Shown one piece after another: positions 24,333 to 43,481 of a stretch of 64,000 nt of DNA; the stretch's first letter is position 1, and every line of letters starts with the position of its first letter. Origin of the DNA: Candidatus Woesearchaeota archaeon (lineage in GTDB: Archaea; Nanobdellota; Nanobdellia; SCGC-AAA011-G17; JACPNG01); assembly GCA_016185615.1 (NCBI GenBank), contig JACPNE010000003.1, positions 6,265 to 70,264 of the forward strand, given 5' to 3'. Below the pieces are notes generated by a model that was given only the letters and a program-made list of their open reading frames with translations, made no database searches and had not been told where the DNA came from. Made by a program: the position numbers and the translations under genes.

Positions 24333-24647
24333 ATGCAGATTAGAAGGAGTTTTGATAATTTAGTAGATAAAATATTGAAAGAAGTTTCTATAAAAATAGC
24401 TAAACATGAATTTGAAGAAGCAATTAGATATACTTCAGATAAGGTTTATTATCGAATTGTCCAGAGCACTAATCCAATATTTTCACATCATAAACCAAGA
24501 GATTTAACTGTTAATGAAAAAGTAAAGAATAGAGTTTATTTCTTCCTAAAAGAATATATTCCTGAATCTTACTTAGATTATGGATGGAAAAAAGTTAAAG
24601 AAGAGGGAAGTAAACCAGTTAAATTAAATTTGTCCCATAATTATTAA
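24333..24647 (+). CDS. hypothetical protein
   Basis: 104-aa ORF with no recognised motif. Converges on radA with a 4-nt overlap. Confidence 0.45.
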   Translation: MQIRRSFDNLVDKILKEVSIKIAKHEFEEAIRYTSDKVYYRIVQSTNPIFSHHKPRDLTVNEKVKNRVYFFLKEYIPESYLDYGWKKVKEEGSKPVKLNLSHNY

Positions 24648-25603
24648 ACATCCCTAATTCCACCTTCGCTTATCTCAAATATGGCTTCTCCATCAGGCAT
24701 TGCCGGAGCATCTACAAGTTTAGCTACCCTTGTTCCTTTTTTTCCTCTTCTTAAATAAATTCTATAAGTAGATGCATGTGCTAATACATGTCCACCGATA
24801 GCCTCAGTGGGATCTCCAAAGAAGACATCTGGCCTTGCCATAACTTGGTTTGTTATATATACTGCAATATTATACTTATTTGCTAATTTCATCAATGCAT
24901 GCATATGTTTATTCAGTTTTTGTTGTCTATCAGCTAATTGTCCCCTTCCGGAAAAATCACTCCTAAAATGACTCATCAAAGAATCAACAATAATTAATTT
25001 AATTGGTAATCCTTCTTTTATCAAATCTTCAACCTTTTCAGCTAATAACATTTGATGATCTGAATTAAAAGACCTAACTCCTCTAAAATTTCTTAATGCC
25101 TCTTCTCCATTTAATCCCTTTGCTTCTGCTAATTTTTTTATAAATTCTGGTCTTAATGTTGATTCAGAGTCAATCCAGACAGCCATCCCTTCAGCCCCAC
25201 CTTTATCCCTAGGAAGTTGAACATTAACAGCTAATTGATGCGCTAAGGTTGTTTTTCCAGAGCCATATTGTCCATAAGCCTCTGTTATTGCCCCAGTTTC
25301 TACCCCCCCACCAATTAATGAATCAAAAGCTTTACTATTTGTTGTTATTTTTATTATCTGTTCCCTCTTCTTAAGTAAATCTTCTCCACTCTCAAAACCC
25401 ATATCTAATTTTGTCCTAGCTACACTAATTATTCTTTTAGCTACATTATCACCCATGCCACATGCATCAACTAATTCAGCAGGAGATGCAACAGCAATTG
25501 ACATTAAATCTGTATATCCGGACTCCATTAACTTTTCTGCTGTTGCTGATCCAACTCCCGGTAGATCTTGAATAGTAAGTTCTTTAGTTTCTTTTGTTGC
25601 CAT
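24644..25603 (-). CDS. radA: DNA repair and recombination protein RadA
   Basis: N-terminal HhH (LPGVGSATAEKL), Walker A GQYGSGKT, Walker B LIIVDS. 319 aa. Confidence 0.95.
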   Translation of the reverse strand: MATKETKELTIQDLPGVGSATAEKLMESGYTDLMSIAVASPAELVDACGMGDNVAKRIISVARTKLDMGFESGEDLLKKREQIIKITTNSKAFDSLIGGGVETGAITEAYGQYGSGKTTLAHQLAVNVQLPRDKGGAEGMAVWIDSESTLRPEFIKKLAEAKGLNGEEALRNFRGVRSFNSDHQMLLAEKVEDLIKEGLPIKLIIVDSLMSHFRSDFSGRGQLADRQQKLNKHMHALMKLANKYNIAVYITNQVMARPDVFFGDPTEAIGGHVLAHASTYRIYLRRGKKGTRVAKLVDAPAMPDGEAIFEISEGGIRDV

Positions 25604-25605
25604 CT

Positions 25606-25893
25606 TTATTCATCCCCCTCATTTTCTTCTGTGTTTTCCTTTTCTTGCTCTTTATTAACTTCAAAAAACAAATAATCTTGGGCTTTGTTTAATAAAAGTT
25701 GGAGTCTTACAATATCTTGTCTTCTCAAGTTATTAATAACTTCAGACCTCCAGATATCTTCCTTCTTTTTCTTATAGCTCTTTGTTATACTAAAAGTTTT
25801 GTAAGAAAGCTCTCCTCCTTCAAACTCCTTTTTATTATCCCAGATAGATAAGTCCATATTGCCTATCCTCCATTTTTGTATTGGTCTTGTCAT
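25606..25893 (-). CDS. hypothetical small protein co-transcribed with radA (acidic tail; possible nucleic-acid-binding protein)
   Basis: 95 aa. Strong SD-like GGAGG 6 nt upstream of the ATG, and only 2 nt from the radA start. The C-terminus is Glu-rich (EQEKENTEENEGDE), as in many SSB-type tails. Confidence 0.55.
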   Translation of the reverse strand: MTRPIQKWRIGNMDLSIWDNKKEFEGGELSYKTFSITKSYKKKKEDIWRSEVINNLRRQDIVRLQLLLNKAQDYLFFEVNKEQEKENTEENEGDE

Positions 25894-26061
25894 TTTTCCT
25901 CCTTTGCTTTCGCATTTTGTTTCAACAGTCCTAGAAATAGCTCCAATTAGTCTCCCTTTTCGGAACTTATTTCATGAGACTAATAGTATAATATCAAGTT
26001 TATTTATAAATCTGGCGCGTGGTTGTCCGCTGTCCGCTACGTATATACTAGAAAATATATA

Positions 26062-26526
26062 TTAAAAAACATTATTTATTGTAATTGCTATAAACACTAA
26101 TATTGTTGCTAGTAAAGCATATTCTAATATCCCTCCAGTCTTGATAAAACCTTTAAGATGTAAATTATTAAATGGTCTCAGGAAGCTTATTCCTGTAGTT
26201 GTTAATGAGTCTATCAATAAATGGGAAATAAATCCAATCAGAAAAGCAAATCCAACTACTGGGTAGCCAAACAAGCTTATAACTATGAAAATTGCTATTG
26301 GAATATATATTGTATGCATTAATCCCCTGTGCCCAAATAATAATTCTAACAAAAAAGACAAAGGTTTTATTTTAGATCCTATTCTGGAAGACATTTTATC
26401 TAAATCAGCTAAAGCAGCCCCAAATATGACAGCTAAGATAAAGATAGATTGATTTGGAACCTCAATTAGAGTCATAGTTAGTAATGCAACTAAAAATCCG
26501 AAAGCTATATGGGTTATGAACATCAT
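26062..26526 (-). CDS. membrane-bound metal-dependent hydrolase (YdjM/DUF457 family)
   Basis: 154 aa, 4-5 TM. His/Asp-containing motifs THIAFG, ADLDK, GHRGLMHT and SHLLIDSLT are typical of YdjM-like proteins. Confidence 0.65.
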   Translation of the reverse strand: MMFITHIAFGFLVALLTMTLIEVPNQSIFILAVIFGAALADLDKMSSRIGSKIKPLSFLLELLFGHRGLMHTIYIPIAIFIVISLFGYPVVGFAFLIGFISHLLIDSLTTTGISFLRPFNNLHLKGFIKTGGILEYALLATILVFIAITINNVF

Positions 26527-27521
26527 TTTAGCTTGCTTAACAATTCATTCATTGATTCTTTTAGGTTAATCTCCTCTACAGAGTTTGTTATAAACTCTAA
26601 TCTATCAAACATATCATTCCTTACAACCTTACCATTGATTATTATCTGACTTCCCAATAATCTTTCTCTTGCATCAGAAAATTTGTTTATATCCTCTTTT
26701 AAGTTTAAAACTTCTTTATCATCCAACTTTAATATTTTAGAAACATTATCCCTAAAAGCAACTACCCTTATATTATCTGTTCCATCATCAAAGAATAAGT
26801 TTAGGATTGGATTAAAATTCTCCTTGACATTTCCATGTACATCACATTTATACTTGTCTCCATTAAGAGTAAGTTTTTTACTGCATTCTGGGCAAGCCGG
26901 ATAAAATTTAGGCTCAAATAATTGGACTATTGTTCCAACAATAGAAACATTATCTCCTAACTTAAGGTCTTTAATTTTTTTCTTCTGCAGTCTTTTTTGT
27001 AAGTTAATAAAAACATTTCCTACAAACTCATTTTCAGGATTAAGTTGAATAGAACTTGATTTGTTTAGATGTACTTCTTTAAATCCGTTATTTTCCCTTA
27101 TATATCCATTTCTTACTAATAATATATCTCCTTCATTTACTTCTTCCATTGATTTTATCTGTGATTCATCCCATATTACTATCCTTATTGCTCCGGTTTC
27201 ATCCCCAACTAATAAACTCTGCACTTTTCCTTGTCTGTCTTGTTTCTTATATTCTATAACTTCATTCTTTTGAACTATCTTAACAAGAATTTCTATATTT
27301 GAAATTCCAGTCATTAATTCATTAACTTTGTATCTTTTTTTGCTTAAATCAAATATTTTTATTCCTAGTTCATTAGCTACTATATAAGCAGCCCCATCCT
27401 TACTTATCAAATCATTAAGCTGTTTTATTTTAGAATTTACTCTTGATTCTATCTCTTCATTGCTAAGATTCTTTTCTTCTTTTATTCTCTTTACAATGTC
27501 TTCATAAGTCGCTTTGTACAT
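26523..27521 (-). CDS. replication protein A (RPA/RFA) ssDNA-binding protein with zinc finger
   Basis: 332 aa. Two OB-fold-like blocks (..VQSLLVGDETGAIRIVIWD.., ..FFDDGTDNIRVVAFRD..) flank the C4 finger CPECSKK...CDVHG. Confidence 0.8.
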   Translation of the reverse strand: MYKATYEDIVKRIKEEKNLSNEEIESRVNSKIKQLNDLISKDGAAYIVANELGIKIFDLSKKRYKVNELMTGISNIEILVKIVQKNEVIEYKKQDRQGKVQSLLVGDETGAIRIVIWDESQIKSMEEVNEGDILLVRNGYIRENNGFKEVHLNKSSSIQLNPENEFVGNVFINLQKRLQKKKIKDLKLGDNVSIVGTIVQLFEPKFYPACPECSKKLTLNGDKYKCDVHGNVKENFNPILNLFFDDGTDNIRVVAFRDNVSKILKLDDKEVLNLKEDINKFSDARERLLGSQIIINGKVVRNDMFDRLEFITNSVEEINLKESMNELLSKLK

Positions 27522-27525
27522 TTTT

Positions 27526-28467
27526 TCAAAATTGATTAAACTCTTGTTCTACTGCAACAACAGGAATTTGTTTTGTTGCTACAACAGTTTTATATGGATA
27601 AGCTAATTTTATTATTAAAGGATTTTGGAAATAATTAGTTTCTGCTGGTAAACTAACTGTTAAAGTGCAGTAAGCCTCTCTTGTTTTTATCGTATCAGTA
27701 AATTTGATTATATTTTGATTGCAATTAAAAACCCCACTCCCCTCCAGATTAATGGCTCCGGCTATATTCAAACTTCTATCCTCATTATTAATCCGTCCAT
27801 CACTTCCACCAAAATCTTGGAAAGTAATTATTAAAGTTACAAATGCTTGGTCATTAACTGCATCAGTCTGTTGTTTTATGCTAGTTATTGCAACAGGTGA
27901 ATTGCGTGCATCAGGTCCAAGATCATTAATACTAAAGGAAGTTCTCGAAGTACATTCTTGTTCCCTTACATTCGCTTCTTCCCCCTTCACACATAGCTGG
28001 GTTATAAAATCCGCTTCATAGTCATATTCTAACTCTGCTCTTATTGCCGCGTTGGTTAAACTGCTATAAGAATATGCAAAAGTATCAAAATCAATCTCTT
28101 CTTCAACAACGGTTTGTCCAAATTCAGCTTCTCTTCCTTTTATTAAAAAACTTCTTGATATTCTTCCAGGAATAGCTTCTAAATTTCCTGTAGGGGTATC
28201 AGATAAATAAACTATTCCAGAAATATCCTTTGTTCCCCAATTCTGTAATAATGCTTCAACCCTAAAAGGAATCCCAATTCTTATTCTGTCTTGTGGCGGT
28301 TTTCCTTCTACGAATTTTAATGTAACTCCCCTATTAGATAATTGCCCTGGCTGATTAGGATTAACTTCAGTTGCAACATTTCTTGGCTGGGAATTAAAAG
28401 GTAATGTTGCACATCCAGAAACAACTACAACAAGGATTAATACTAATAAAAGAACTATATGCCTCAT
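27526..28467 (-). CDS. lipobox-containing secreted protein (paralogue of 16150-17109), last gene of the pilus-like operon
   Basis: Signal peptide MRHIVLLLVLILVVVVSG-C (lipobox). Collinear similarity to the 319-aa lipoprotein at 16150-17109. Confidence 0.65.
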   Translation of the reverse strand: MRHIVLLLVLILVVVVSGCATLPFNSQPRNVATEVNPNQPGQLSNRGVTLKFVEGKPPQDRIRIGIPFRVEALLQNWGTKDISGIVYLSDTPTGNLEAIPGRISRSFLIKGREAEFGQTVVEEEIDFDTFAYSYSSLTNAAIRAELEYDYEADFITQLCVKGEEANVREQECTSRTSFSINDLGPDARNSPVAITSIKQQTDAVNDQAFVTLIITFQDFGGSDGRINNEDRSLNIAGAINLEGSGVFNCNQNIIKFTDTIKTREAYCTLTVSLPAETNYFQNPLIIKLAYPYKTVVATKQIPVVAVEQEFNQF

Positions 28468-28479
28468 CTAATTAAAAAA

Positions 28480-29994
28480 CTATGGGTTGTTTAAAAGGTT
28501 TTCTGTAAAAAATACTACAGCTCCAGATACACTATTATCTAGTTGTCCAAATAATAAATTTTCAACCTTTCTTATTTCTATAGAAGCATCTTGTGTTACT
28601 CTATAAGTATATCCAGCATCAGCTTGAATTTTATATACTTCTAATAAATCTTGTTCTTGTGGAGCACCTTGTATCATTATTCCACAGTCAAATATTAAAT
28701 TATCCCTAAAACTTGGACATAATTGTGCATCTTTATTGTCAGAGTAGCAATATAATCTTATTCTATCGTTTATATCTTTTATAATTATAGATGATAAGTC
28801 TCCATCAGTAAATGATTCACAACTATCTTGGTTAATCGAAACCCCAGGTTCATTCAATGAACTTATTCTCAAATAATTTAACTTTTCTAAATTTCCACCC
28901 CAAACAAACTTATCTGAAACTGTGTTTATTAATCCAATTTTTATTCTTTCATTTTGTATTGTAAATGGTTGTCTTCCAAATAGTTGAATAGATAAAGGAA
29001 TTGGAGTTCTAGCACCAATTTGTTGTGATCTTATTTCCCCATCCCCTTTCCATAATCCAGAGTTAACTAATCCTTGATATAAATCATTTCTTTCAAATAA
29101 AAGTCTACCTACCCCACTTCTTGCTAAACTATCTTGACTTGTGACATATAGGTCTTGTATTGTTCTAGAGATTACATCATACTTAACATTTAATGTTATT
29201 AGTTTTCCAGTTCTTACTTGATCTTTTACAATACTAAAACTATTTTTTGGAAGAACGCATCTTACTTGCACTTGTCTTGTTATTCCAGAAGCCCCACCCA
29301 TAACAATTGTTGAGACTTCATTTATTCCCTTTGTCCCTTCACCAACTAATTCTATTTGTATTGGACCATTATAATCTTTTGAACTACAAGAGATATCTAA
29401 TCTAATATCATTTTGAACATTTTTTATATTAATTAGTCCATCTAATCTTATTTCTTCATCTTCATTATAAAATCTTCTTAATGATTCAAATTGCTGAATA
29501 ATTACCCCCATCTTCTCAGTAGGTTTTTCTGAGACTACATCTGGATTTTTAAATTCGCCTATCTCTTCTGGATATTTCAAGAATTTTACAAAATTATTAA
29601 CTATTGCGTCTTTTGTAGCTTCAAAGGACCTTCCTAAACTAGCTTCAGCTTTTGAGACAAAAATGTTACATGTTCCTCCTAAATACGGAACAGATTGAAG
29701 AAAAGTTGAACATGAAAAGTAAAAGAAAATTCCGACAATTAATACAACAAAAATCGCTTTTAATAAACTCGGCTTTTTACCATTTCTAACAGTAATGGAG
29801 GTTTGTTGAGGTTGTTGATAAACTGATTGTATTGGTTGAGAAGGTTGAGATTCTCTTCTCCTAAAAGGTGATGTAATAGCATCAAGTGGTTGTTTTGCTA
29901 CTCTCCATCTCCACTGCATTTTTTCCCATCTTCGTCTCTCTAAATTTAATCTTTTTAATTCTTCATCCTCACTTTCCTTTCCCCAAAAAGCCAT
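28480..29994 (-). CDS. membrane-anchored extracellular protein (basic/Gln-rich cytoplasmic N-tail, one TM)
   Basis: The ORF track gives 28480-30024. ATG at 29994 (MAFWGKESEDE...) is preferred because GAGGT precedes it and it clears the upstream stop at 30005-30007. Single TM LLKAIFVVLIVGIFFYF, about 75-90 residues from the N-terminus depending on the start chosen. No known domain recognised. Confidence 0.65.
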   Translation of the reverse strand: MAFWGKESEDEELKRLNLERRRWEKMQWRWRVAKQPLDAITSPFRRRESQPSQPIQSVYQQPQQTSITVRNGKKPSLLKAIFVVLIVGIFFYFSCSTFLQSVPYLGGTCNIFVSKAEASLGRSFEATKDAIVNNFVKFLKYPEEIGEFKNPDVVSEKPTEKMGVIIQQFESLRRFYNEDEEIRLDGLINIKNVQNDIRLDISCSSKDYNGPIQIELVGEGTKGINEVSTIVMGGASGITRQVQVRCVLPKNSFSIVKDQVRTGKLITLNVKYDVISRTIQDLYVTSQDSLARSGVGRLLFERNDLYQGLVNSGLWKGDGEIRSQQIGARTPIPLSIQLFGRQPFTIQNERIKIGLINTVSDKFVWGGNLEKLNYLRISSLNEPGVSINQDSCESFTDGDLSSIIIKDINDRIRLYCYSDNKDAQLCPSFRDNLIFDCGIMIQGAPQEQDLLEVYKIQADAGYTYRVTQDASIEIRKVENLLFGQLDNSVSGAVVFFTENLLNNP

Positions 29995-30004
29995 ATTACC
30001 TCTT

Positions 30005-31246
30005 TTACTCCCTCTCAGGATCAAATTTAAACATTAAAATCATATTTTCTTGGATTAAATTGTTATTTTTGTTTGTTAACAATTTAAAGTTAGTTATAAT
30101 TTCGAATTTAATAAATCTATCTTCTCTATTAAGATTCCATTGAAGTCCTTTTTTATCTTCAATGCAATTGGATAAATCAAAAGTTATGTCTTTCGTTTTT
30201 AGGCATTCTTTAGATTTCATAACTTCACTATGTAACTCATCCAGAATGTTGAAATTAAAATTAATTTTTTCAATGAAAGAAGGATCTCTTTCATATGTTC
30301 CCGTAACTATTGTTTCTCTTTTTATGTCTGAAGATACAACTGATCCTGTTATTCTATTTAATTCGTTATTAACTTTTTTAACATAATTTTGAGTTTCTTT
30401 TAATTCTGGAATTTTTCCTAAACTAGCCACTCTTGATGGACCCGCATTATAAGCAGCTAGTGCTAAATCAATATTTTTGAATTTGTCTAGTTGTAATTTT
30501 AGATAAGCAGTTCCAGTTAAGATATTCAATCTAGGATTAAACTTAGCATCTTCAAAATCCCATTCAACATTAAACTTATTTTTAACATCTTTAAATGCTA
30601 TCTCTCTTATTTGCATCAAACCATATGCATCTTTATTAGAGATTGATGTTGGATTATAATTAGATTCAACATTTATTACAGCCCTTATCAAATTTTCATC
30701 AACATTAAAGGTTTGGCTAGCTTCTTTTATCCAATGATCATATCCAACATCCTTTACAGAAAAATCTATTACTTTCTTTTCTTTTAATGTTATATTATCA
30801 TTGTTTATTTCAAATAAAAGAGAATTTTTAGATTTAACAATGAGATTATTATCTTGAATTGTGTAATCAAAATCCAATTTTGGAATTTTGTTATTTAAAT
30901 TTAAATAATTCTTAAAATTGTTATCAAAGTATAATAGATAGTCTTCTTTATTTGGTTTACATTCATTATTCCAAACAAATTCATTTTCTGATTTACATCC
31001 TTCTTTTCTTAACCCACCATTTTTTCCAAACTCATTTAATGCATCATTGATAGAATTCCTTGCACTCTGTTTTATATATTGCCTAATAAACTCTCCCTTT
31101 TGATATAGTTGAATTATGTCTATTTGATTCTTTCCTGCTTCTCCGGCAATTGATGTATTTGTAGTTAAAACAGTTAATGTGGCATAAGCTAATAAGAACG
31201 CAGTTAATGCAACCAAAGTCGGCAAATAGATTCCTTTTTTGTTCAT
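30005..31246 (-). CDS. prepilin-like N-terminus fused to lytic transglycosylase (SLT, GH23-like) domain
   Basis: N-terminus MNKKG-IYLPTLVALTAFLLAYATL. SLT signatures in order: AVINVESNYNP (catalytic E-S), AYGLMQI, LAAYNAGPSRV. Confidence 0.85.
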   Translation of the reverse strand: MNKKGIYLPTLVALTAFLLAYATLTVLTTNTSIAGEAGKNQIDIIQLYQKGEFIRQYIKQSARNSINDALNEFGKNGGLRKEGCKSENEFVWNNECKPNKEDYLLYFDNNFKNYLNLNNKIPKLDFDYTIQDNNLIVKSKNSLLFEINNDNITLKEKKVIDFSVKDVGYDHWIKEASQTFNVDENLIRAVINVESNYNPTSISNKDAYGLMQIREIAFKDVKNKFNVEWDFEDAKFNPRLNILTGTAYLKLQLDKFKNIDLALAAYNAGPSRVASLGKIPELKETQNYVKKVNNELNRITGSVVSSDIKRETIVTGTYERDPSFIEKINFNFNILDELHSEVMKSKECLKTKDITFDLSNCIEDKKGLQWNLNREDRFIKFEIITNFKLLTNKNNNLIQENMILMFKFDPERE

Positions 31247-31821
31247 GATAATCCTTTAAACAATTTCAGTTTTATATTAACTAAATTCTTTTTATAATCA
31301 GGCAAAGATAATGAATATTCCAGACTATTTCTGAATTTTTTGTCGAATCCAACTAATGGAAGTATTTTTGGTTCAGTTCCAGTAGTTACTATTGCATCTG
31401 TATTAAAAGAGTGTATTATGGGATCATAACCCCCATTCAGGAAGATAGTTTTGTCAGTAAATTTAATTTCTAAATACCATAAGCAGACTTCTTGTGGGTT
31501 ATCTACTAGCATTTTGCTGTCAACTTTGCATATTTTGTTCATTGGTTCTCTTACTTTTTCTTTTATTTTGTCTTTATCGTTTTGATTTAAGATAATAAAT
31601 TCATACAGATTAACATCTTCAATCGGTGTATTCATCAGATTTTTCAATGTCAAACCACCATCATTGCTAACCTTCTTTGAGGTTATTATCTCACTTATAT
31701 TTTTCATATCAGCATATGAAATTTCATTTGCAAACAAAACAAAGAAGACAGTCAATATTATTGCAAGAGTTATTATTGAAAAGCCATCCATTAATCCCTC
31801 TCCCAAAACTCCTTTTTTCAT
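31243..31821 (-). CDS. prepilin-like protein (192 aa)
   Basis: N-terminus MKKG-VLGEGLMDGFSIITLAIILTVFFVLF. ATGA overlaps on both sides. Confidence 0.6.
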   Translation of the reverse strand: MKKGVLGEGLMDGFSIITLAIILTVFFVLFANEISYADMKNISEIITSKKVSNDGGLTLKNLMNTPIEDVNLYEFIILNQNDKDKIKEKVREPMNKICKVDSKMLVDNPQEVCLWYLEIKFTDKTIFLNGGYDPIIHSFNTDAIVTTGTEPKILPLVGFDKKFRNSLEYSLSLPDYKKNLVNIKLKLFKGLS

Positions 31822-32285
31822 TGGACTATTACCTCTGCTTTTAATATATCATAACTAACTTTACCATTATTTGAAACTAGAACATATTGCTGGCTTTTGA
31901 ATAAACATTGTTTTTGTTTATTTCCAACTTGGCAAAGATTAAAAGCATCTCTATAATTTTCTATGTTAGATATTGTTTTTTCATTATTTTCTAACTCTAA
32001 TTTTATTGGATAGTTTAATCCAATACAATTTCTCAATCTTTCTTCAGTAAATTTACTAATATCTATCTCTCCTGGCTCAATAACAACATTTTGCAATGCA
32101 AAACATTCAGAAGAGTAATACAATTTTCTTATTGTTAAGTCTGCTATTGACTCATTAATATTTATCTCTCTAGCTATAGCTGAATTTACTACAAAAAATA
32201 CTGCACCGAGAATGATGATAGTTAACAATATTCTATTTATCCATAATAATGTCTCTCCAGAGATCATATAAGCGCCCTTTTTCAT
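31818..32285 (-). CDS. prepilin-like protein (155 aa)
   Basis: N-terminus MKKG-AYMISGETLLWINRILLTIIILGAVFFVV. ATGA overlaps on both sides. Confidence 0.6.
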   Translation of the reverse strand: MKKGAYMISGETLLWINRILLTIIILGAVFFVVNSAIAREININESIADLTIRKLYYSSECFALQNVVIEPGEIDISKFTEERLRNCIGLNYPIKLELENNEKTISNIENYRDAFNLCQVGNKQKQCLFKSQQYVLVSNNGKVSYDILKAEVIVQ

Positions 32286-33118
32286 GTTATTTTATTCCTC
32301 TCTATAGAATCTTTATAGCTATAAGCATACATATTATCAAAACAATTTGAATTTGATTTGAAAGAAAGGCTATTAGGATCAAAATAATTAATCGGATCCT
32401 CTACTTTTCCATTGATAACAAGTTCAAAATGTAAATGTGGTTCATATTGTGTGTGGCTTTTTGGTCCATGTTGCCCAGATTTAGCTATTAGCTCCCCTTT
32501 TCTAACTTCACAATTTTCTACACAATTAAATCCACTTAATTTTATTTCTTTTGATAATTTATCTAGATGCAAATATCTAGTAATAACTCCATTCCTATGT
32601 TCAATAGTTAACGAATTCTCAGTTCCGGCCCCATTAACATATGTTTTTATTATTCCATCTTCTATAACAAAAACATCTTCATAATTGGCTCTCAAATCTA
32701 CTCCTTCATGATAAGAAGTTCCTTCGCTTATTTGCCTATTACCGAAGCAGGAGGTAACTATTTTTTGATTTACTGGGAAGACAAAATCAGTTGTTCTTAT
32801 GGCAAGATTCTTTTTCTGTTCTCTTATAAGCAAATTTATATTTGGAGAATAAGTTGAAAATATCTTATTTGATGAAATTTTATTTCCACTTATATCAAGA
32901 TTTCTGTCACCATATTGATAATTTAAATTTAGTTTGCCAGGAGAAAGCTGGGCAGTATTTAATAATAATGATGTATCCAAGGACACATACCTATCAGAAA
33001 ATCCAGATGCTTCAGCAGTTCTATCTATCATAAAGATAGTAGTTATAACAACAAATCCAACTAGAAGAAGATAAAAAGCCCACAAGATGGTTCTTTCTTC
33101 TTCACCCCTTTTATCCAT
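32282..33118 (-). CDS. prepilin-like/TM N-terminus fused to M23 (LytM/lysostaphin-type) metallopeptidase domain
   Basis: N-terminus MDKRG-EEERTILWAFYLLLVGFVVITTIF. M23 zinc motifs HxxxD (SYHEGVDL) and HxH (EPHLHFEL), with intervening TIEHRNGVITRYLHL. Confidence 0.85.
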   Translation of the reverse strand: MDKRGEEERTILWAFYLLLVGFVVITTIFMIDRTAEASGFSDRYVSLDTSLLLNTAQLSPGKLNLNYQYGDRNLDISGNKISSNKIFSTYSPNINLLIREQKKNLAIRTTDFVFPVNQKIVTSCFGNRQISEGTSYHEGVDLRANYEDVFVIEDGIIKTYVNGAGTENSLTIEHRNGVITRYLHLDKLSKEIKLSGFNCVENCEVRKGELIAKSGQHGPKSHTQYEPHLHFELVINGKVEDPINYFDPNSLSFKSNSNCFDNMYAYSYKDSIERNKIT

Positions 33119-33136
33119 GTATCTAAACTTATTACT

Positions 33137-33592
33137 TTATTTATTATTGTTTTGGTCTATAGAAACCCCTGAAGAGTCATATCTTATCTTTAGTACTCCT
33201 CCCCCACTTGAAATTTCTCCAGAATTTTTGAATTTTTTGTTGACTTCTTTACATTCAAATTTCTCGCATGATAAATCTAAGCACAGGCATAAACAACTTC
33301 TTAAAGTGCATACTGGAGACTGCTGTTTAATTTTATCGTTTATTGAGTCTGGATTTAAGTATTCTATTAAATATCCGTCTTTTAAGTTGTAATATGTCTC
33401 AATAAACGGATTATTTAGGCTTAATTTATCTATATCTCTGGAAATATATTCAAATGAATTGTAGCTCTGTTTGTCTATTGTGCTATACTGTGGCAATAGA
33501 CCAATAAAAGAACTTGATACATTATAAAGAACAAGAAGGACAATAACCCCAACTATTAATCCAACTACGGCCTTGCCCGTTATTAAAGTCAT
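33137..33592 (-). CDS. prepilin-like protein (151 aa, Cys-containing)
   Basis: N-terminus MTLITGKA-VVGLIVGVIVLLVLY. Distal CTLRSCLCLCLDLSCEKFEC Cys cluster. Confidence 0.55.
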   Translation of the reverse strand: MTLITGKAVVGLIVGVIVLLVLYNVSSSFIGLLPQYSTIDKQSYNSFEYISRDIDKLSLNNPFIETYYNLKDGYLIEYLNPDSINDKIKQQSPVCTLRSCLCLCLDLSCEKFECKEVNKKFKNSGEISSGGGVLKIRYDSSGVSIDQNNNK

Positions 33593-33629: not shown

Positions 33630-34082
33630 TTAACATGTAATTTCTGGGCAACCAACGCCCAAATCTAAGATACTATTTGATCCATATCTTTCTTTTATTA
33701 AACCCTCATTAGTTCTAGCCTTATCACTACATGTATAAACAGTATCATATTTCCCGTCACTACCTATGTTTGATCTGCCATCTATCACAAAAGCAGTATT
33801 ACAATAAGCTGAATTTTTTCTTAAATTTCCTGTATCTGGTAGTAACTTAGCTTGATCACAAAATTGTTGACAGCTTTGAACAGCTAAAACCTCATCAGTC
33901 CCTGCTGTAGTCGAGTAAAATGTAGATTTTATTCTATCTGTTAGCCCTTTAAAACCACCAAAAAAGAATGTAACAACAACAACTAAAACTAGAATAGCTA
34001 ATATTGCAATTATGATTGTGTTTAGAGTTAAACTTTGACCTCTTTTGTCCATCTTTTTTTGCATAAAGATATTAGTAATCAT
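33630..34082 (-). CDS. candidate major pilin (class III signal KRG-Q, Cys-rich globular part)
   Basis: ..MQKKMDKRG-QSLTLNTIIIAILAILVLVVVVTFFFGG, with Q at +1 as in many archaeal pilins. The start is probably ATG 34064 or 34052, because TATA-like ttttatatata abuts the first ATG. An 89-bp upstream spacer is present. 7 Cys in the C-terminal part. Confidence 0.65.
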   Translation of the reverse strand: MITNIFMQKKMDKRGQSLTLNTIIIAILAILVLVVVVTFFFGGFKGLTDRIKSTFYSTTAGTDEVLAVQSCQQFCDQAKLLPDTGNLRKNSAYCNTAFVIDGRSNIGSDGKYDTVYTCSDKARTNEGLIKERYGSNSILDLGVGCPEITC

Positions 34083-34171: not shown

Positions 34172-35590
34172 CTAATTCGATTTTGCTATACAAGAATCGC
34201 TTTTGATTATACATCCTGTTGCTGAAAATCCACATGGATCTTGTTCACATAAAGGTTGCCATTCATGTGTGCGTAGTCTTGTATCGTGCCCGCTTGGGTT
34301 AATTGATTTGCTACTGTATGCATCGCAACTTTTTAGAGTTATGGTTGCACAGGAGAAACAGCTACCAGTATTGCCTCCAGTCCATCCCCAAGGAGCATAA
34401 TCATTTACAGTATCCTTCCAATAACATCTAAACAACCCATTACCAAATCCTTTATTTTTTCTTTCACAAACTGAATAATCAATATTTTTTGTGTTCTCTA
34501 AACAATCATTTTTAAGACTATTTTTAAAAGTAGTTGATTTGATTCCTAAACTATTTGGAAATTCTTCCAATAGTTTAGAATAGTATAAATAATAAATAGT
34601 TTGATCTTCTGTTATACATCTATCCGCTATTTCTCTTAATGCTTCAGCAAAAATAGGTTTATTCTTATCTTCAACCCCATTATTGTTAATTAAATATAAA
34701 TTTTCATAAGATTTCCTATCAACATATTGTCTTAGTTTAATCTGGAATTCTTGACAACTAGGATTTTGTTTAGCATTTAGAAGAGCAGTTTTATAATTTA
34801 TACTATTCTTAAAAGATTTCATTACTTGTGTATCTTTACTTAATAATTCTCTAAAATTTTCATCATTAGATAAAGTTCTTAATGCTTCTAAAGTATCTGC
34901 TTTTATATAAGCGGATTTTAATTCTTCAAATTTTTTTTCATTTCCTTCAAATGATTTTTGAACTTTTTCTAGTTCTTCCAATCTTTTTTTGATAGAATCT
35001 GGAAGCCCATTAGGGAAATGCTTTAATGCTTCAGATTTAGCTAAATCAATTCTATCTTTTGTAGGATTAGAGATGGCAGCATCTATTAAACTATTTACTA
35101 TAAATAGTTTATCTTCTTGACTGGTTACTCCTGCTCCTAATGAAGCTATACCTTGTAAATTAGAGTTCATTTTATAACAGTTAATTAACTTAATTCTTAA
35201 ATCCCTAGATAACTTTTCTTTGTCAGTCACTTCATGTTTTTTAATTTCATTCAATGCATCATTATACTCTTTAGTTAATTGAACAACATTATCAGAATTA
35301 CATTCTCCACGATCTGCTAATAATGATATAACTTTGTCCCTTCTACCATCTTTGCTTAATAATCCAAAAGTATTATCAATAATTGGTTTTACACCCTCTG
35401 TTAATCCAATAGCTGTATCCCCTAGTTTACCAACCCCTTTTGATAAAGCAGGCCAATATTTAAAGATAAACATAATTATTATAATTAAAACTGCTATTGC
35501 TATTATTCCATTAATAAATTTCCACCATTCTCCTTCTCCTTTTTTGTTCAATTTATTTTTTATATTTCTCTTTTTTTTCATTTCAACCAA
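34172..35590 (-). CDS. large prepilin-like/TM-anchored extracellular protein (472 aa, helical middle, Cys-rich C-terminus)
   Basis: N-terminus ..NKLNKKG-EGEWWKFINGIIAIAVLIIIIMFIF. The C-terminal ~110 aa contain 13 Cys. Confidence 0.6.
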   Translation of the reverse strand: MVEMKKKRNIKNKLNKKGEGEWWKFINGIIAIAVLIIIIMFIFKYWPALSKGVGKLGDTAIGLTEGVKPIIDNTFGLLSKDGRRDKVISLLADRGECNSDNVVQLTKEYNDALNEIKKHEVTDKEKLSRDLRIKLINCYKMNSNLQGIASLGAGVTSQEDKLFIVNSLIDAAISNPTKDRIDLAKSEALKHFPNGLPDSIKKRLEELEKVQKSFEGNEKKFEELKSAYIKADTLEALRTLSNDENFRELLSKDTQVMKSFKNSINYKTALLNAKQNPSCQEFQIKLRQYVDRKSYENLYLINNNGVEDKNKPIFAEALREIADRCITEDQTIYYLYYSKLLEEFPNSLGIKSTTFKNSLKNDCLENTKNIDYSVCERKNKGFGNGLFRCYWKDTVNDYAPWGWTGGNTGSCFSCATITLKSCDAYSSKSINPSGHDTRLRTHEWQPLCEQDPCGFSATGCIIKSDSCIAKSN

Positions 35591-35720
35591 AACTAGTTAA
35601 CTTTAACAAAGCATCTTTTAAGTTATTTATATTTGTTAGAAAAATTATAACCAATACTAAAACTATTAACACAATTATTGCGCTTGCAATTTGCCAAAAT
35701 TCAAATCCTTTTTTATCCAT
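35583..35720 (-). CDS. 45-aa minimal prepilin-like micro-protein
   Basis: Unlisted ORF, translated manually: MDKKG-FEFWQIASAIIVLIVLVLVIIFLTNINNLKDALLKLTSFG. Its start abuts the stop of the preceding micro-ORF. Confidence 0.5.
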   Translation of the reverse strand: MDKKGFEFWQIASAIIVLIVLVLVIIFLTNINNLKDALLKLTSFG

Positions 35721-35861
35721 CTAAAAATTCTCCTTTAGTTTTAATAAGATATTTGACATCTGATCCTTAAATATTATAGCTAAATAAACAACTATTACTA
35801 TTACTATAACCATGATTATTAGTTTAGCAACAGTTTCCCAATGAAATTCTCCTTTTTCCAT
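35721..35861 (-). CDS. 46-aa minimal prepilin-like micro-protein
   Basis: Unlisted ORF: MEKG-EFHWETVAKLIIMVIVIVIVVYLAIIFKDQMSNILLKLKENF. Same architecture as the neighbouring 45-aa ORF (shared ..N.LLKL.. tail). Confidence 0.5.
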   Translation of the reverse strand: MEKGEFHWETVAKLIIMVIVIVIVVYLAIIFKDQMSNILLKLKENF

Positions 35862-35896: not shown

Positions 35897-36769
35897 TTAT
35901 CTCGCATAACCAGTGCATAATTCTTTAACTCCTTCCGAATCTGTCGCAATAATCAACGAATTAAATCCTTTACTTTGTAGAAGAGCATTAGCTCCCCCAG
36001 TGCCAACAGCCAGTAATCCGCCACCTATAAGCGCATATGGTTTAGATATATATTTGATGCCAGGAATATTTGCAATTATAACTGCTGTAGCTACTGTTGT
36101 AACAGCCCCCCTTCCAATTCTATTTAATATTCCTTCTTTTTTATTCACTATAAACAAAACAAATAATGATTTATCTTTTGTTATTTCAAGATCTTGTAAT
36201 CCAGCAACTAATTGATTTTCTCTTGTACCTGTCCCAGTTATATAATCTAAGTATGTTCTCTTATCAAGGAGTGGTTTCGGCTTATTATCTCTTAAATAAA
36301 TCGCCATTTCCTCATTGCTTATCTTAATCTCATTTTCAGAGCTTATTTTAGAACAGACATAACAAAGATCATTATCCTTAAACCACCCAGTATAATCTAT
36401 GTCACCATAAAAATTAAATTTTCCCTCTCCAAACCTTCCCCAACAGTTTGCCATCTCTTTTGCTATAACCTTTTTAGCTTCTTCTTTGGTTTTTACATTT
36501 TCTGAGTTAGTCTTACAATTAAGATTAAAAGGAGAGTTAACTTGTGGTACAATACTACCTGCAACTGGAGCTTTTTCTAACACAGCACCAACACCATATG
36601 TTTTGCTATATGTTTTTATAACAACACTAGAAAAACATATTGTATCATTAATATTGTCTAAAACAAATGGTTTCCAAAAATATATTAAGATTAAGAATAA
36701 GACAATTAAAGATATTGTTAACCCAATTAATCCAGTAATTATTGAAAATTCTCCTTTTTTTTCAGCCAA
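35897..36769 (-). CDS. prepilin-like protein (290 aa) with additional Gly-rich hydrophobic C-terminal segments
   Basis: TTG start in the ORF track. N-terminus MAEKKG-EFSIITGLIGLTISLIVLFLIL. C-terminal ..AVTTVATAVIIANIPG..ALIGGGLLAVGTGGANALL. Confidence 0.6.
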   Translation of the reverse strand: MAEKKGEFSIITGLIGLTISLIVLFLILIYFWKPFVLDNINDTICFSSVVIKTYSKTYGVGAVLEKAPVAGSIVPQVNSPFNLNCKTNSENVKTKEEAKKVIAKEMANCWGRFGEGKFNFYGDIDYTGWFKDNDLCYVCSKISSENEIKISNEEMAIYLRDNKPKPLLDKRTYLDYITGTGTRENQLVAGLQDLEITKDKSLFVLFIVNKKEGILNRIGRGAVTTVATAVIIANIPGIKYISKPYALIGGGLLAVGTGGANALLQSKGFNSLIIATDSEGVKELCTGYAR

Positions 36770-36994: not shown

Positions 36995-37186
36995 TTAATG
37001 AAATTTATTAATGCTTATTCCATATAATACTGCTATGGCACCTATTCCTACAATAATGATTTGATATGTTGCTCCTGAACTTGGAATTATTTTTACAGCT
37101 TCTGGAATAAATTCATAACTAGATATTAATGGCCATATTCCTCCCAACATTGTTAGGATTCCAACAAATGTTATCATCAGTTTCAT
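36995..37186 (-). CDS. small 2-TM membrane protein
   Basis: 63 aa with two hydrophobic helices. Directly follows the 222-aa membrane protein (1-nt spacer). Confidence 0.5.
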   Translation of the reverse strand: MKLMITFVGILTMLGGIWPLISSYEFIPEAVKIIPSSGATYQIIIVGIGAIAVLYGISINKFH

Positions 37187-37187
37187 T

Positions 37188-37856
37188 TTAAGTTGTTGAT
37201 TTTTTTATTATTCCCCAAACTATTAAAGCTATTGATCCCAAAAATGCTATATTAAACCATGGCATTAAGTCTATAGGAATTGCAGGACTAAAAATAAAAA
37301 AATTAAAACCAGTGTACTGGTCCAATAAACCAAAATAAGCCATATAAAATACAATGTATGCTCCACCCATTCCAATTAATCCTGAACCAGTAGTCTGATC
37401 TAAGATACTATAAACAAAAACTGAAAGTAGGATTATGATTATGAAAAATGCCCAAGGTCCAAAATTTTCTAATAATGAAAATCCGGTTTGTCTTTCCCAA
37501 ATTAACAAAGCTATTGATAAAAATATTCCTAGTCCAACATAAACAGCTTTTCCTCCTCCCTCTAAATGTTTTCCTAAGATTGATTGTCCTAAACCTAAGA
37601 ATATAGCTAAAAATATTCCCAAATCAAAAAAACTTGTATACTGATAATACAATTCTAGAATATCAAATTGATCATAACCTAAACCATATCCCCTATAAAC
37701 TGCTCCAGAAGTAAAATTTCCAGAGATTAAAAATAATACAAATATTCCAAGGAAGATACTCCCAGTTATTGCTATCTTGCTAGAGATATTATGAAGAGTT
37801 ATTCTATACTCTTCTTTTTTCTGAGTCCTCTTTTTCTTCATTATTATCCTAAACAA
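37188..37856 (-). CDS. polytopic membrane protein with internally duplicated LENFG/FD-type motif (family shared with 43471-45119)
   Basis: 222 aa. The segments SFFDLGIFLAIFLGLGQSILGKHLEGG and LLENFGPWAFFIIIILLSVFVYSILDQTTGSG both resemble the N-termini of the three paralogues at 43.5-45.1 kb. Confidence 0.6.
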   Translation of the reverse strand: MFRIIMKKKRTQKKEEYRITLHNISSKIAITGSIFLGIFVLFLISGNFTSGAVYRGYGLGYDQFDILELYYQYTSFFDLGIFLAIFLGLGQSILGKHLEGGGKAVYVGLGIFLSIALLIWERQTGFSLLENFGPWAFFIIIILLSVFVYSILDQTTGSGLIGMGGAYIVFYMAYFGLLDQYTGFNFFIFSPAIPIDLMPWFNIAFLGSIALIVWGIIKKSTT

Positions 37857-37879: not shown

Positions 37880-40045
37880 TCAAGCCACAGAAGTTATAAC
37901 ATTAATTCCATTCGCTAATACATTAAATACAAATATTCCAATTAATGATATAATAAAGTATAATCCAACCCCAAATATTAAACTTTTCCCAAGTTCATAT
38001 TTTCTCATAATCTTATCATCATTATTTTCAATTGCATTCCTTAAAATTGTTAATACAATTATTATTTCTAAGATATAAATTCCTATAACCAATTGAAAAT
38101 GAAAGCTTGGGATTACATCCTCTATCCTTAATATTTCTATTAATCCTTGTAAATTTCCAACCCCTTCCTCATTTGTCAGAGATACTGATTTGAACTGCTC
38201 CCCAAGCTTATTTATTATTGTAACAACCATTGAAGCGACTCCGACAACAATTGCTGCTATCATTGGTGCTAAGAAACTCGCTTGAGATTTCATGCTGCTT
38301 ATTATTTCTGCTAATAAATCTTTCATCCTTTCAGCCACCTTATGAATTCTATCTGCATAAACTGAGATGCTGATAAGACTCTTTGATACAACTTCAGGGC
38401 CTTTCTTAGCACTCTCAATCAAAACTTTCATGCTACTTTCAATTAGTTTAGAAGGAAAGTAAAGCAATGCTCCCCTTTCTTGATTGAATATTGCTTCATT
38501 AACGCTCATTCCCAGTTTTCTAATATTTATATTTACAATTCTAAAGAAGTTTCCTGTTGGCGTTCCTTCCAAGTCTTCTGAAATTTTTCCGAATGCCGAT
38601 TCAACAGGAATTCCACTGCCAACCCTATTTCCTAATTGAAACAAACTTCCTGTAAACTCTCTTTCTAGTTTATCTGTCTCTCTTTTGATGTCAATTAAAT
38701 TTTTTGTGTTTGCTTTGTAATACATTCCAATTGCTAAAGCCAATCCTAATGGGACAAATAAACTAAGTATCAAAGACCAAATCCCATATGGCCCGATGTA
38801 TTTATTACATACCCCATTTATTTCTTCTAAACATTTGTAATCAAGAAGTTTGCCGCCAATCCCCTCCTCCAAGAATCCAACCTGATCAAAATCATTAGTA
38901 ATTAAATGTAGCAAAACGGGCATAAATCCAATTAGTAAAAAAACAAATCCGATTAATAAAGAGATTAATAATGCTGAATCATTTTTATATTTTTTAACTT
39001 CTGGATTATTCTCAAATAAATCACTCTCTCCAAAACCACTAACTCTTTTTGATAAAATATTAATTCCTAATATTAAGACTAAAGGGGGAAGTAAAAAATT
39101 GTAGATAATTGATAAATGCCACCATTTAACTGCACCCCTCAAGAAACTTGAAACTAAAGGAAATATTACAATTCCCAATATTGGCAATATAATTCCAAGC
39201 ATATGTAACATTGTAATTGGAGAATTTAACTCATGTGCAAAATGTAACATCTTGTCATATGTTCCATCAAGCATGACTTCTAAGCTCTTATCAAGCAAAG
39301 CGACTCTTTTTGATTCATTAGGCTCTTGTAAACTTGCTTCAATTAAATGTAAAGATTCTACAAACTCTAAATTATAATTTTTCCATCCCTCTAAATAAAC
39401 ATCAAGACTTTCTTTCATTGTTGAATATTTATCGGTTTCAACATCCCAGAAAACTTTTCTTAAATCCAAAGCCATTGGATTTCCTATGTGCTCCCCAGCA
39501 AATTTAATTGCTCTTTCTAAATTGCTTGTATGTCTCATATACATAACAACATAAAGAATGCATAAAACCATTTGATTACTTGCCTTTAGTCTATATCTGT
39601 TAGCCAAATAATTTGGTATTTTGCTTAATGGCTTTATTATTAATGCTCCTAACAACAACAGGAATAACGGGGTAAAGATTAATATTTCTCCAAGAAAAAA
39701 TGAAACTAAAGCAACTATGGCTGCAATTAGTATTATTATTCCGGCTAAAATAACTGAAAAACTATAAGCCCCAATTGGAGTTATGTCTAAATGTAATATG
39801 TTTATTGATTTTTGTAATTCTTCTTCATCTTTTTGTTGAGGTTTTATCTTGATAATCCCTTCGGAAAAATTGCATAAATTTTCATAAATTGTTGTTTTTT
39901 TATCCAATAATTCTTTTCTGAATATATCATATTCTCTGGAAAACACCTCATTTGTTGGAAGATTTTCAAAAGAAAGATTTGATGTGCTTTCTAATTTTTT
40001 GCTATACTCTCCAAGAATCCTCTTTGTTTTTTCATCAATCTGCAT
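37880..40045 (-). CDS. type IV pilus/archaellum-type platform membrane protein (FlaJ/TadC/PilC-like)
   Basis: 721 aa, with many TM helices interleaved with two soluble helical regions. Immediately downstream of the secretion ATPase (1-nt spacer). The assignment is by architecture and position, not by motif. Confidence 0.65.
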   Translation of the reverse strand: MQIDEKTKRILGEYSKKLESTSNLSFENLPTNEVFSREYDIFRKELLDKKTTIYENLCNFSEGIIKIKPQQKDEEELQKSINILHLDITPIGAYSFSVILAGIIILIAAIVALVSFFLGEILIFTPLFLLLLGALIIKPLSKIPNYLANRYRLKASNQMVLCILYVVMYMRHTSNLERAIKFAGEHIGNPMALDLRKVFWDVETDKYSTMKESLDVYLEGWKNYNLEFVESLHLIEASLQEPNESKRVALLDKSLEVMLDGTYDKMLHFAHELNSPITMLHMLGIILPILGIVIFPLVSSFLRGAVKWWHLSIIYNFLLPPLVLILGINILSKRVSGFGESDLFENNPEVKKYKNDSALLISLLIGFVFLLIGFMPVLLHLITNDFDQVGFLEEGIGGKLLDYKCLEEINGVCNKYIGPYGIWSLILSLFVPLGLALAIGMYYKANTKNLIDIKRETDKLEREFTGSLFQLGNRVGSGIPVESAFGKISEDLEGTPTGNFFRIVNINIRKLGMSVNEAIFNQERGALLYFPSKLIESSMKVLIESAKKGPEVVSKSLISISVYADRIHKVAERMKDLLAEIISSMKSQASFLAPMIAAIVVGVASMVVTIINKLGEQFKSVSLTNEEGVGNLQGLIEILRIEDVIPSFHFQLVIGIYILEIIIVLTILRNAIENNDDKIMRKYELGKSLIFGVGLYFIISLIGIFVFNVLANGINVITSVA

Positions 40046-42838: not shown

Positions 42839-43481
42839 TATTCCTACTGAAGAAGCCATGGATTTGAATAAAAGGGGACTAAAAAAAGGAGAGATAGTTA
42901 AAAAATTAGAAGAAAAAGGTTACAGACCCCAACAAATAAATGATGCTTTTAACCAAATTGATATCAAAAGTGGGATAAGTGGAAAATATCCTTATGAAGA
43001 TGTTTCTCACCCGGGAATGGAATCTTCCGTATTAAACCTAGAAGAAGAGGCCCCTTCTCCAACACAAATGGAAGAAAGGGAGATTCCTCAGCAAAGGCAA
43101 AATATTTCTACTCCGCAAATACCTCAAGTTACACAACGAGATTATAGTGCAGATACAGAAGAATTGATAGAAGCTGTAATAGAAGAAAAATGGCAGGAGT
43201 TTATGGATAGACTCGGAGATATGGAGTCTTGGAAGATAAGAACCGATGATGATATTACATCAATAAAACAAGAGGTTATTAGATTAGGTAAAAGATTTGA
43301 TAACTTACAAAGTTCAATAGTACAAAAAGTAGGGGAATACAACCAAAATATAATGGATGTAAATACTGAAATTAAAGCACTAGAAAAAGTATTCCAGAAT
43401 ATAATAGATCCTTTAACAAATAATATTAAAGAGCTAGGAAGAATAACAAAAGATTTGAAAGGGAATAAAACTAATTTTTAG
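42822..43481 (+). CDS. coiled-coil protein with small N-terminal helical domain and Pro/Gln-rich linker
   Basis: 219 aa. N-terminal RGLKKGEIVKKLEEKGYRPQQINDAF, a linker rich in P/Q/E, and a C-terminal coiled coil. Overlaps the upstream ORF by 17 nt. Confidence 0.5.
   Translation: MKDLDDIPTEEAMDLNKRGLKKGEIVKKLEEKGYRPQQINDAFNQIDIKSGISGKYPYEDVSHPGMESSVLNLEEEAPSPTQMEEREIPQQRQNISTPQIPQVTQRDYSADTEELIEAVIEEKWQEFMDRLGDMESWKIRTDDDITSIKQEVIRLGKRFDNLQSSIVQKVGEYNQNIMDVNTEIKALEKVFQNIIDPLTNNIKELGRITKDLKGNKTNF

Follow-up and report, generated by a model that had tools for sequence, protein, structure and literature searches.

Introduction

Modular type IV pilins, in which a pilin module is joined to a separate functional module, have been described in bacteria; in Streptococcus sanguinis the added module is of the von Willebrand factor A (vWA) type in PilB and a lectin in PilC (Raynaud et al. 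2021, PMC8179133). That survey is devoted to bacteria, with mostly adhesion modules and one peptidase architecture, and includes no archaea and no transglycosylase. Here we describe a locus on a 64,000-nucleotide stretch of DNA from Candidatus Woesearchaeota archaeon, a very small inhabitant of groundwater (contig JACPNE010000003.1, positions 6,265 to 70,264; “the window” denotes this whole stretch throughout) in which the same design carries a different cargo. A 413 amino acid protein encoded at 30005-31246 on the minus strand, the SLT protein, combines a pilin-like N-terminal module (N-module) with an SLT (GH23) lytic transglycosylase domain and a C-terminal module (C-module), its gene lies in a pilus-like operon beside that of a second pilin-like protein bearing an M23 metallopeptidase domain, and relatives carry the same subunits with or without these domains. 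As in the bacterial modular pilins, a pilin module is combined with a grafted functional module, orthologues without that module exist, and a presumed minor, tip-exposed subunit would lend the filament a new function. The differences lie in the carrier, which is of archaeal class III type, in the cargo, which is a predicted murein glycosidase or peptidase, and in the SLT domain being inserted between modules rather than appended.

Murein hydrolases are also well known as parts of bacterial machines, among them VirB1, BfpH, R64 PilT, EtgA/IagB and FlgJ/BB0259, while glycosidase and peptidase occur together in CwlT, PrgK and TcpG of Gram-positive conjugation systems. The window resembles these trans-envelope systems in having an SLT-type enzyme inside a secretion or pilus operon and in combining glycan-cutting with peptide-cutting enzymes, a combination also found in CwlT and PrgK. 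The bacterial enzymes open the sacculus of their own producer, whereas the producer here is an archaeon with no known murein.

Two archaeal systems offer further comparisons. The bindosome of Sulfolobus (BasEF) likewise brings together functional, non-pilin proteins with class III signals, a FlaI-family ATPase and a membrane protein, but its cargo consists of substrate-binding proteins for uptake rather than hydrolases, and the composition of its locus is different. The Halogranum protein “Woldo”, a secreted M23 peptidase with a PG_binding_1 domain, is an archaeal peptidoglycan hydrolase that kills bacteria, and the accompanying screen found M23 in four Nanoarchaeia genomes (PMC12352652). The window too encodes an archaeal M23 murein peptidase predicted to be directed at bacteria; Woldo, however, is a secreted toxin with a peptidoglycan-binding domain, whereas none is detected here and a pilus-like apparatus would provide the targeting.

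The enzyme itself has precedents in the same archaeal group. SLT domains have been reported there since Rinke 2013 and Castelle 2015 (as cited in PMC8204110), murein-like lytic transglycosylase proteins were described as fam00969 in Woesearchaeota and Pacearchaeota (Castelle et al. 2021, PMC8204110), and the enzyme has been noted as GH23 in Lake A metagenome-assembled genomes (MAGs; Vigneron et al. 2022, PMC9723730) and in three MAGs from an oxygen-deficient zone (ODZ; PMC10936187). The domain, the archaeal group and the proposed bacterial-wall target are the same as here. In the relevant passages of these three papers, however, the enzymes are “large extracellular” proteins of up to 3000 amino acids or are given as the enzyme alone, in contrast to a 413 amino acid subunit of a pilus-like locus, and nothing in those passages connects the enzyme with class III signals, with a pilin module or pilus locus, or with an M23 peptidase or amidase encoded alongside it. 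The presence of SLT in Woesearchaeota and the idea of a bacterial-wall target (PMC8204110, PMC9723730) are already published, and the protein is already annotated (MBI2663090.1). The link between enzyme and pilus appears to be new. An incomplete literature search returned nothing that connects archaeal SLT or M23 domains with class III signals, pilin modules or pilus loci, and nothing on SLT/M23 or SLT/amidase pairings or on the gain and loss of such modules; a 2016 survey of archaeal type IV pili contains no DPANN, Woesearchaeota or transglycosylases (PMC4858521).

The transglycosylase domain

The SLT protein is identical to NCBI entry MBI2663090.1, a “lytic transglycosylase domain-containing protein” of Candidatus Woesearchaeota archaeon. 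A preliminary description of the window, made from the sequence alone, had assigned to it a murein lytic transglycosylase domain with three family-1 signatures, and this assignment holds. The Pfam profile PF01464 matches residues 173-287 with E=9.2e-26 and 90.2 bits, against a cut-off of 21.3, within a domain that spans residues ~168-300 (30347-30745, minus) between the N- and C-modules. The family-1 motifs stand in canonical order where they had been placed, as E194-S195 (VINVESNYNP), G209-L-M-Q212 and A265-Y-N-A-G269, with the codon of the catalytic Glu194 at 30665-30667 (minus), and they are invariant or nearly so in nine full-length homologues. Residues E194, S195, G209, L210, Q212, A265, Y266, N267 and G269 do not vary among the nine, nor do K4 of the leader and two cysteines in the N-terminal part, and the ES pair is retained in 35 of 38 pilin-type SLT domains. 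In a phmmer alignment E194 occupies the column of the catalytic glutamate of MltC, at which the sequence of 4cfo carries Q, and a PDB sequence search with the SLT protein returns MltC, MltE and Slt70.

An AlphaFold2 (AF2) model of the protein, with a predicted local distance difference test (pLDDT) score of 75.8, starts with a 72-residue N-terminal helix; a small beta head comes next and is joined by a linker to the SLT domain (170-300), from which another linker leads to the C-terminal alpha/beta module. Its SLT part matches the folds of MltC, Slt70, Slt and MltE in Foldseek (4c5f, 1qte, 5ohu and 4hjy; E 3e-7 to 2e-5), with a root-mean-square deviation of ~3 Å over ~150 residues against Slt70 and Slt. 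The alignment with MltC agrees with the catalytic glutamate proposed earlier. Among NCBIfam families the best match is the flagellar-assembly lytic transglycosylase of BB0259 type, and the matches also include IagB. With MltC, Slt70 and MltE of Escherichia coli the catalytic domain has in common a lysozyme-like fold and the motifs ES, GLMQ and AYNAG, but it is only ~20-28% identical to them in structural alignments, it has no lipoprotein or periplasmic context, and its flanking modules are different. By motifs and fold it is an intact, bacterial-type family-1 lytic transglycosylase, with predicted activity.

The top matches of the domain taken by itself include proteins of Bacillus and Lysinibacillus, at 39-50% identity over the SLT domain. 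A neighbour-joining tree and an all-against-all BLAST of the domains, made to trace the origin of SLT, did not resolve the relationships and allowed no donor to be named; pilin-type SLT domains are as distant from one another as they are from bacterial SLT domains. Among the homologues retrieved there was no bacterial pilin-SLT fusion with a GFTLIE-type N-terminus.

The flanking modules and class III-like N-termini

The N-module (residues 1 to ~162; 30761-31246, minus) comprises the leader, a hydrophobic stretch and a small beta head. The protein begins with MNKKG-IYLPTLVALTAFLLAYATL, a short basic leader followed by a hydrophobic helix, just as the preliminary description had reported in calling this N-terminus prepilin-like. 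AF2 predicts a helix at residues 4-75 and 4-5 strands, C84 and C96 are conserved, and the topology of a separate model of the N-module (pLDDT 67.6) is pilin-like, with a long N-terminal helix and a small beta head. The pattern of K-[KR]-[GA] and a hydrophobic stretch is kept in orthologues of the SLT protein down to 29% identity, with leaders ending in MDRKA, NKKG or KRG. An exhaustive profile search yielded some 30 clusters, formed at 50% identity, that combine N-module and SLT; every one of them has a basic leader, in most cases K-[KR]-[GA], that runs into a hydrophobic stretch, while a word-index search with the N-module profile returned 10 proteins and no new architectures. Orthologues of the N-module are found in 35 loci. 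At the other end of the protein, the alpha/beta C-module (residues 301-413; 30008-30346, minus), with a conserved C348, is kept in orthologues that have no SLT domain.

Eleven open reading frames (ORFs) of the window fit the class III-like pattern. Eight of them lie inside the pilus-like cluster, in which nearly all small proteins start with M-x-K-[KR]-G and a hydrophobic helix. The other three belong to unrelated proteins of the window, and surface proteins of the source organism seem to make wide use of this type of N-terminus. Two of the three (1411-3381, minus, 656 amino acids; 17132-18424, minus, 430 amino acids) have no Pfam match and begin with a basic leader ending in G or A and a hydrophobic helix. 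The third (57693-58280, minus) is a pilin-like protein of 195 amino acids starting MQKRG-QTTIFIILGIV, and its gene lies directly upstream of, and overlaps, that of a protein of 1141 amino acids (54290-57715, minus) with MopE-type metal-binding motifs and bacterial TSP3 repeats. These two may form a second pair of a pilin and a giant surface protein.

A second hydrolase in the same operon

The SLT gene lies inside a long co-directional cluster that runs from a secretion ATPase to RPA/YdjM, and its place inside an ATPase-platform-pilin operon is as expected for enzymes of the VirB1, BfpH or FlgJ type. Three 4-nucleotide ATGA overlaps chain it to the genes at 32282-33118, 31818-32285 and 31243-31821. 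All three overlaps, which the preliminary description had pointed out, are real. The same description had called these three genes pilin-like; their N-termini are pilin-like, but the product of 32282-33118 is more than that, as it also bears an intact M23 domain that had been overlooked.

This M23 protein (32282-33118, minus, 278 amino acids), encoded three genes upstream of the SLT gene, consists of a pilin-like N-module (MDKRG and a hydrophobic stretch) and an M23 metallopeptidase domain (PF01551, E=1.7e-15 in Pfam). Its zinc motifs are intact, with HEGVD (HxxxD) at 137 and HLH (HxH) at 228, and they are conserved in eight of the eight loci that bear the domain. The best matches of the protein are the murein endopeptidases Pgp3, MepM and ShyA, and in the PDB its top match, 6jmx, is likewise an M23 peptidase. 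In all eight loci that have SLT within the N-module architecture, SLT is accompanied by M23.

Conservation of the locus and optional enzyme modules

The gene for the platform-like membrane protein of the locus is present in 387 GTDB species genomes. With this protein as the GTDB query, 80 loci were kept out of the 387 matches, almost all of them labelled Woesearchaeota, Nanoarchaeota or Nanoarchaeia, and all ORFs of 86 loci were searched with home-made hidden Markov models (HMMs) for each window gene and each module of the enzyme proteins. The frequencies below are rough, as the ORFs were called mechanically, the HMMs are home-made, and 35 of the 80 loci were informative. A GTDB scan with a five-sequence alignment of the SLT protein matched 143 stretches, none of which was confirmed.

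The same order from ATPase to RPA/YdjM, including the M23 gene, is found beside SLT homologues that are 54% (P0004) and 29% (P0008) identical, and loci L001-L006, like dozens of GTDB genomes, keep the gene order as a whole. The backbone that recurs consists of the ATPase, the platform, g290, the major pilin, g151, the M23 N-module, g155, g192, the SLT N-module and RPA. The enzyme domains are optional add-ons to these conserved subunits. The SLT N-module is present in 28 GTDB-derived loci and contains SLT in one (L030), the orthologues in the other 27 being SLT-less; the M23 N-module is present in 31 such loci, with an M23 domain again in one (L030). Orthologues without enzyme are short in most loci, at ~115-145 amino acids for the M23 type and ~235-280 for the SLT type, and in L008, L019 and L013 residues ~163-295, which hold SLT, are cleanly absent while the N- and C-modules still align. 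Locus L008 belongs to a close relative, with a platform-like protein 82% identical to that of the window, and its orthologues of 114 and 277 amino acids are both without enzyme domains in an operon that is otherwise intact, 4-nucleotide overlaps included. In the distant L004 lineage SLT and M23 are both present at the same positions, so that the simplest history suggested by these sequences would be one gain before the L004 split and a joint loss in L008. With a pilin module and a separable module that is absent from orthologues, the SLT protein has the makeup of a modular pilin, as judged from sequence.

Other lineages carry other combinations. In L033 the g151-type subunit is a protein of 560 amino acids with a class III-like N-terminus, SLT (E=5e-26) and Amidase_2 (E=5e-30), and L055 has the same SLT and Amidase_2 architecture on g151, ended by the contig edge, while L056 and L062 have SLT alone on other pilin-like proteins of the cluster. 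Taken with the SLT and M23 of the window, the L033 and L055 proteins point to at least two distinct combinations of a glycan-cutting and a peptide-cutting domain, each predicted to be murein-specific, grafted on different subunits of one machine. A further SLT protein, of 243 amino acids and with no class III-like N-terminus, is encoded in L011 (8099-8830, minus), immediately beyond the platform gene and on the strand opposite to it.

Proposed function and alternative explanations

We consider it rather probable that the two enzyme proteins are modular, minor-pilin-like subunits of a pilus-like machine and are aimed at foreign bacterial murein. The machine would consist of the FlaI/TadA ATPase, the polytopic protein in the platform position and some ten proteins whose N-termini are class III-like. 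Both enzyme proteins would be inserted into the membrane by their N-terminal helix and trimmed after K-[KR]-G by a prepilin peptidase, and the enzyme subunits would be displayed on the filament or at its base. At the point of contact SLT and M23 would then cut the glycan strands and the peptide cross-links of the foreign bacterial sacculus, which would allow the archaeon to attach tightly to a bacterium, whether host or prey, to penetrate it or to lyse it. The sequences themselves show which domains are present, that their catalytic motifs are intact, the N-terminal motif, the operon with its synteny and the pattern of module gain and loss; within this scheme we infer signal cleavage, incorporation into a filament, the murein substrate and the bacterial target.

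To our knowledge no archaeon makes murein, and no mur gene is present among the window ORFs scanned, which argues for an outward target. That such an enzyme would point outward had already been proposed, and the proposal gains support from the M23 domain on another subunit, from SLT with Amidase_2 elsewhere and from the 27 of 28 orthologues without SLT. This last count also argues against a housekeeping role in the envelope of the producer itself. Because most lineages are enzyme-less, and the close relative with L008 is without both domains, the enzymes do not seem to be needed for assembly of the machine. Because the recruited partners are M23 and Amidase_2, murein is a likelier substrate than chitin or pseudomurein.

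Several results weigh against a pilus-borne enzyme. Short and lineage-biased as the curated class III and pilin profiles are, no Pfam profile of this kind matches the SLT protein (SLT alone is found at E<=0.01) or the neighbouring cluster proteins scanned (E<=5), and the candidate major pilin has no NCBIfam match. The AF2 model of the N-module finds no significant pilin match in Foldseek (best E 0.23). No A24 prepilin peptidase is present among the window ORFs scanned, and the platform-like protein shows no detectable FlaJ, TadC or PilC homology in Pfam, NCBIfam or PDB profiles and no internal repeat in hhalign. The class III-like motif may also serve for surface anchoring in general, for which the Sulfolobus bindosome is a precedent, rather than as a signal for filament assembly.

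If enzyme-bearing pilins do act at the contact site, they provide a concrete delivery mechanism, which earlier reports of SLT in this group did not offer. For Woesearchaeota, which are among the most widespread DPANN groups, hydrolase-bearing as opposed to bare subunits in one syntenic locus would be a simple genomic marker of the likely type of host, and the relative with L008 is a natural “double knockout” for comparison. The principle of modular pilins would then hold in archaea as well as in bacteria, and for enzymes as well as for adhesion modules. Cryogenic transmission electron microscopy (cryo-TEM) of groundwater from Northern California has revealed pili-like appendages of ultrasmall cells that reach into host cells (PMC7906910), an observation that enzyme-bearing pilins may help to explain; as the imaged cells were not identified as Woesearchaeota, the images are compatible background and not evidence for the source organism. 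A bolder proposal, which we put forward tentatively and consider less likely than not, is that woesearchaeal pilus-like filaments are cross-domain wall-breaching devices, on whose minor pilins swappable SLT and M23 or SLT and amidase modules bore through a living bacterium's sacculus for attachment, bridging or lysis. If this were true, presence or absence of the modules would mark those Woesearchaeota that use bacterial hosts as against archaeal ones or none.

The absence of pilin HMM or fold support, together with the class III-like N-termini on unrelated proteins of the window, would be in keeping with surface-anchored scavenging exoenzymes. The N-terminus would then tether or export SLT and M23, which would break down free debris of peptidoglycan as a source of amino sugars and amino acids, with neither display on a filament nor a specific host. 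The ATPase also resembles the bindosome ATPase BasE, and DPANN archaea are described in general terms as scavengers in the relevant passage of PMC10936187. We nevertheless regard this explanation as unlikely, in view of carrier modules that are core syntenic subunits and enzyme-less in most lineages, and of enzymes that were repeatedly grafted onto the subunits of one machine and are absent together from L008.

It is improbable, to our minds, that the proteins are self-directed, space-making hydrolases that open the wall of the producer for pilus assembly in the manner of VirB1, BfpH, EtgA or FlgJ. Such a role would suit a gene that sits within the operon of the machine, as those of bacterial specialised lytic transglycosylases do, and the BB0259-type flagellar-assembly enzyme as best NCBIfam match. 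The VirB1, BfpH and FlgJ enzymes act on murein of their own cell, however, and that setting does not appear to extend to an archaeal producer in which no mur genes are seen among the ORFs scanned, nor to a family in which nearly all orthologues are SLT-less and the L008 operon is intact without either enzyme domain.

We give still less credence to the idea that SLT cuts a glycan other than murein, be it chitin or chito-oligosaccharides, the pseudomurein of a methanogenic host or glycans at archaeal surfaces. GH23 does include chitinases, and the fold search returns the GH23 chitinase 3w6e weakly; Woesearchaeota have also been proposed to live in syntrophy with methanogens, a proposal taken up in a passage of PMC9723730. 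Against this stand the complete set of family-1 murein lytic transglycosylase motifs and the partners specific for murein peptides, M23 in each of the eight loci with SLT in the N-module architecture and Amidase_2 (MurNAc-L-Ala) in L033 and L055. Pseudomurein, moreover, contains no N-acetylmuramic acid (MurNAc) and no beta-1,4 linkages.

The cluster is flanked on both sides by archaeal genes, namely RadA, RPA, PolD DP2, GINS51, eIF2-alpha, PAC2, PAN, XPF/Hef, S3Ae, S15 and SRP54/FtsY, GC content is uniform along the window at ~30%, and RPA directly downstream and the same gene order recur on independent contigs (ENA, JGI, Tara and NCBI). The archaeal housekeeping context given in the preliminary description is borne out by these genes. 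Although SLT is typically a bacterial or phage domain and its closest domain-only matches include Bacillus and Lysinibacillus, a bacterial or chimeric contig, which that description had named as grounds for withdrawing its proposal, or a prophage can be set aside with near certainty, as no phage genes were seen and the archaeal flanks and recurrent synteny effectively refute it.

Components of the pilus-like locus

The cluster begins with a secretion ATPase of the FlaI/TadA family (T2SSE; 40047-42308, minus, 753 amino acids), which matches FlaI at 9e-35 and TadA at 2e-34 in NCBIfam and resembles BasE weakly (E=2e-16). In L026, L051, L056, L065, L073, L074 and L078 the FlaI/TadA-type ATPase is tandem-fused, with ~1260-1280 amino acids and two ATPase matches in one ORF. 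The platform-like protein follows in the position of FlaJ or TadC (37880-40045, minus, 721 amino acids) and has eight predicted transmembrane (TM) segments. Next comes g222, a conserved membrane protein of 222 amino acids with six predicted TM segments (37188-37856, minus). It was considered as a prepilin peptidase and rejected, as inspection revealed no GxGD motif and there was no A24 match. A paralogue of g222 is encoded upstream of the ATPase at 44017-44574, flanked by small hydrophobic membrane proteins (43471-44004 and 44574-45119, minus), and elsewhere (L018, L025, L031, L036, L038 and L046) the g222 slot is taken by giant variants of 760-917 amino acids with extra regions. A small membrane protein of 63 amino acids (36995-37186) comes after g222.

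The pilin-like part of the cluster starts with g290, a conserved member of 290 amino acids with the N-terminus AEKKG-EFSII (35897-36769, minus). It is followed by two tandem mini-pilin genes (35583-35861, minus), whose products, of 45 and 46 amino acids, have nothing beyond leader and hydrophobic helix except a short tail; they have the size of bacterial Flp/Tad-like pilins and are conserved in L001, L004 and L008. A cysteine-rich protein of 472 amino acids (14 Cys; 34172-35590, minus) has the pilin-like N-terminus NKKG-EGEWW. The candidate major pilin (33630-34082, minus, 150 amino acids) has a canonical KRG-Q class III-like site, and g151 (33137-33592, minus, 151 amino acids) is the pilin-like subunit that bears SLT and Amidase_2 in other lineages. 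Enlarged g151 or major-pilin subunits of 330-565 amino acids with no Pfam domain occur in L024, L047, L060, L061, L071 and L074 and may represent further cargo modules. Between the M23 gene and the SLT gene lie g155 (31818-32285, minus, 155 amino acids) and g192 (31243-31821, minus, 192 amino acids), two conserved pilin-like subunits that both start with MKKG and a hydrophobic stretch.

Two genes stand between the SLT gene and RPA. The first encodes a single-TM protein of 514 amino acids and overlaps the SLT stop (28480-30024, minus), and the second encodes a lipoprotein-like protein of 313 amino acids with a signal ending in VSGC (27526-28467, minus). Both are restricted to the sublineage of the window (8 loci; the window, L001-L006 and L008), and neither has an informative match in Pfam, NCBIfam or PDB.

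Genomic surroundings

At 4499-4592 (minus), beside a tRNA-Val, ARAGORN calls a tRNA of 94 nucleotides with a four-base “anticodon” (gtac), which is probably an intron-containing archaeal tRNA. RPA follows directly after the pilus-like cluster in 32 loci (L013, L019, L032, L033, L041-L063 and others) and YdjM does so in 19; the corresponding stretch of the window is 24644-27521, with RadA ~0.5 kb beyond it. The adjacency of the cluster to RPA/YdjM may be a mere conserved order, or it may hint at a link with DNA uptake or processing.

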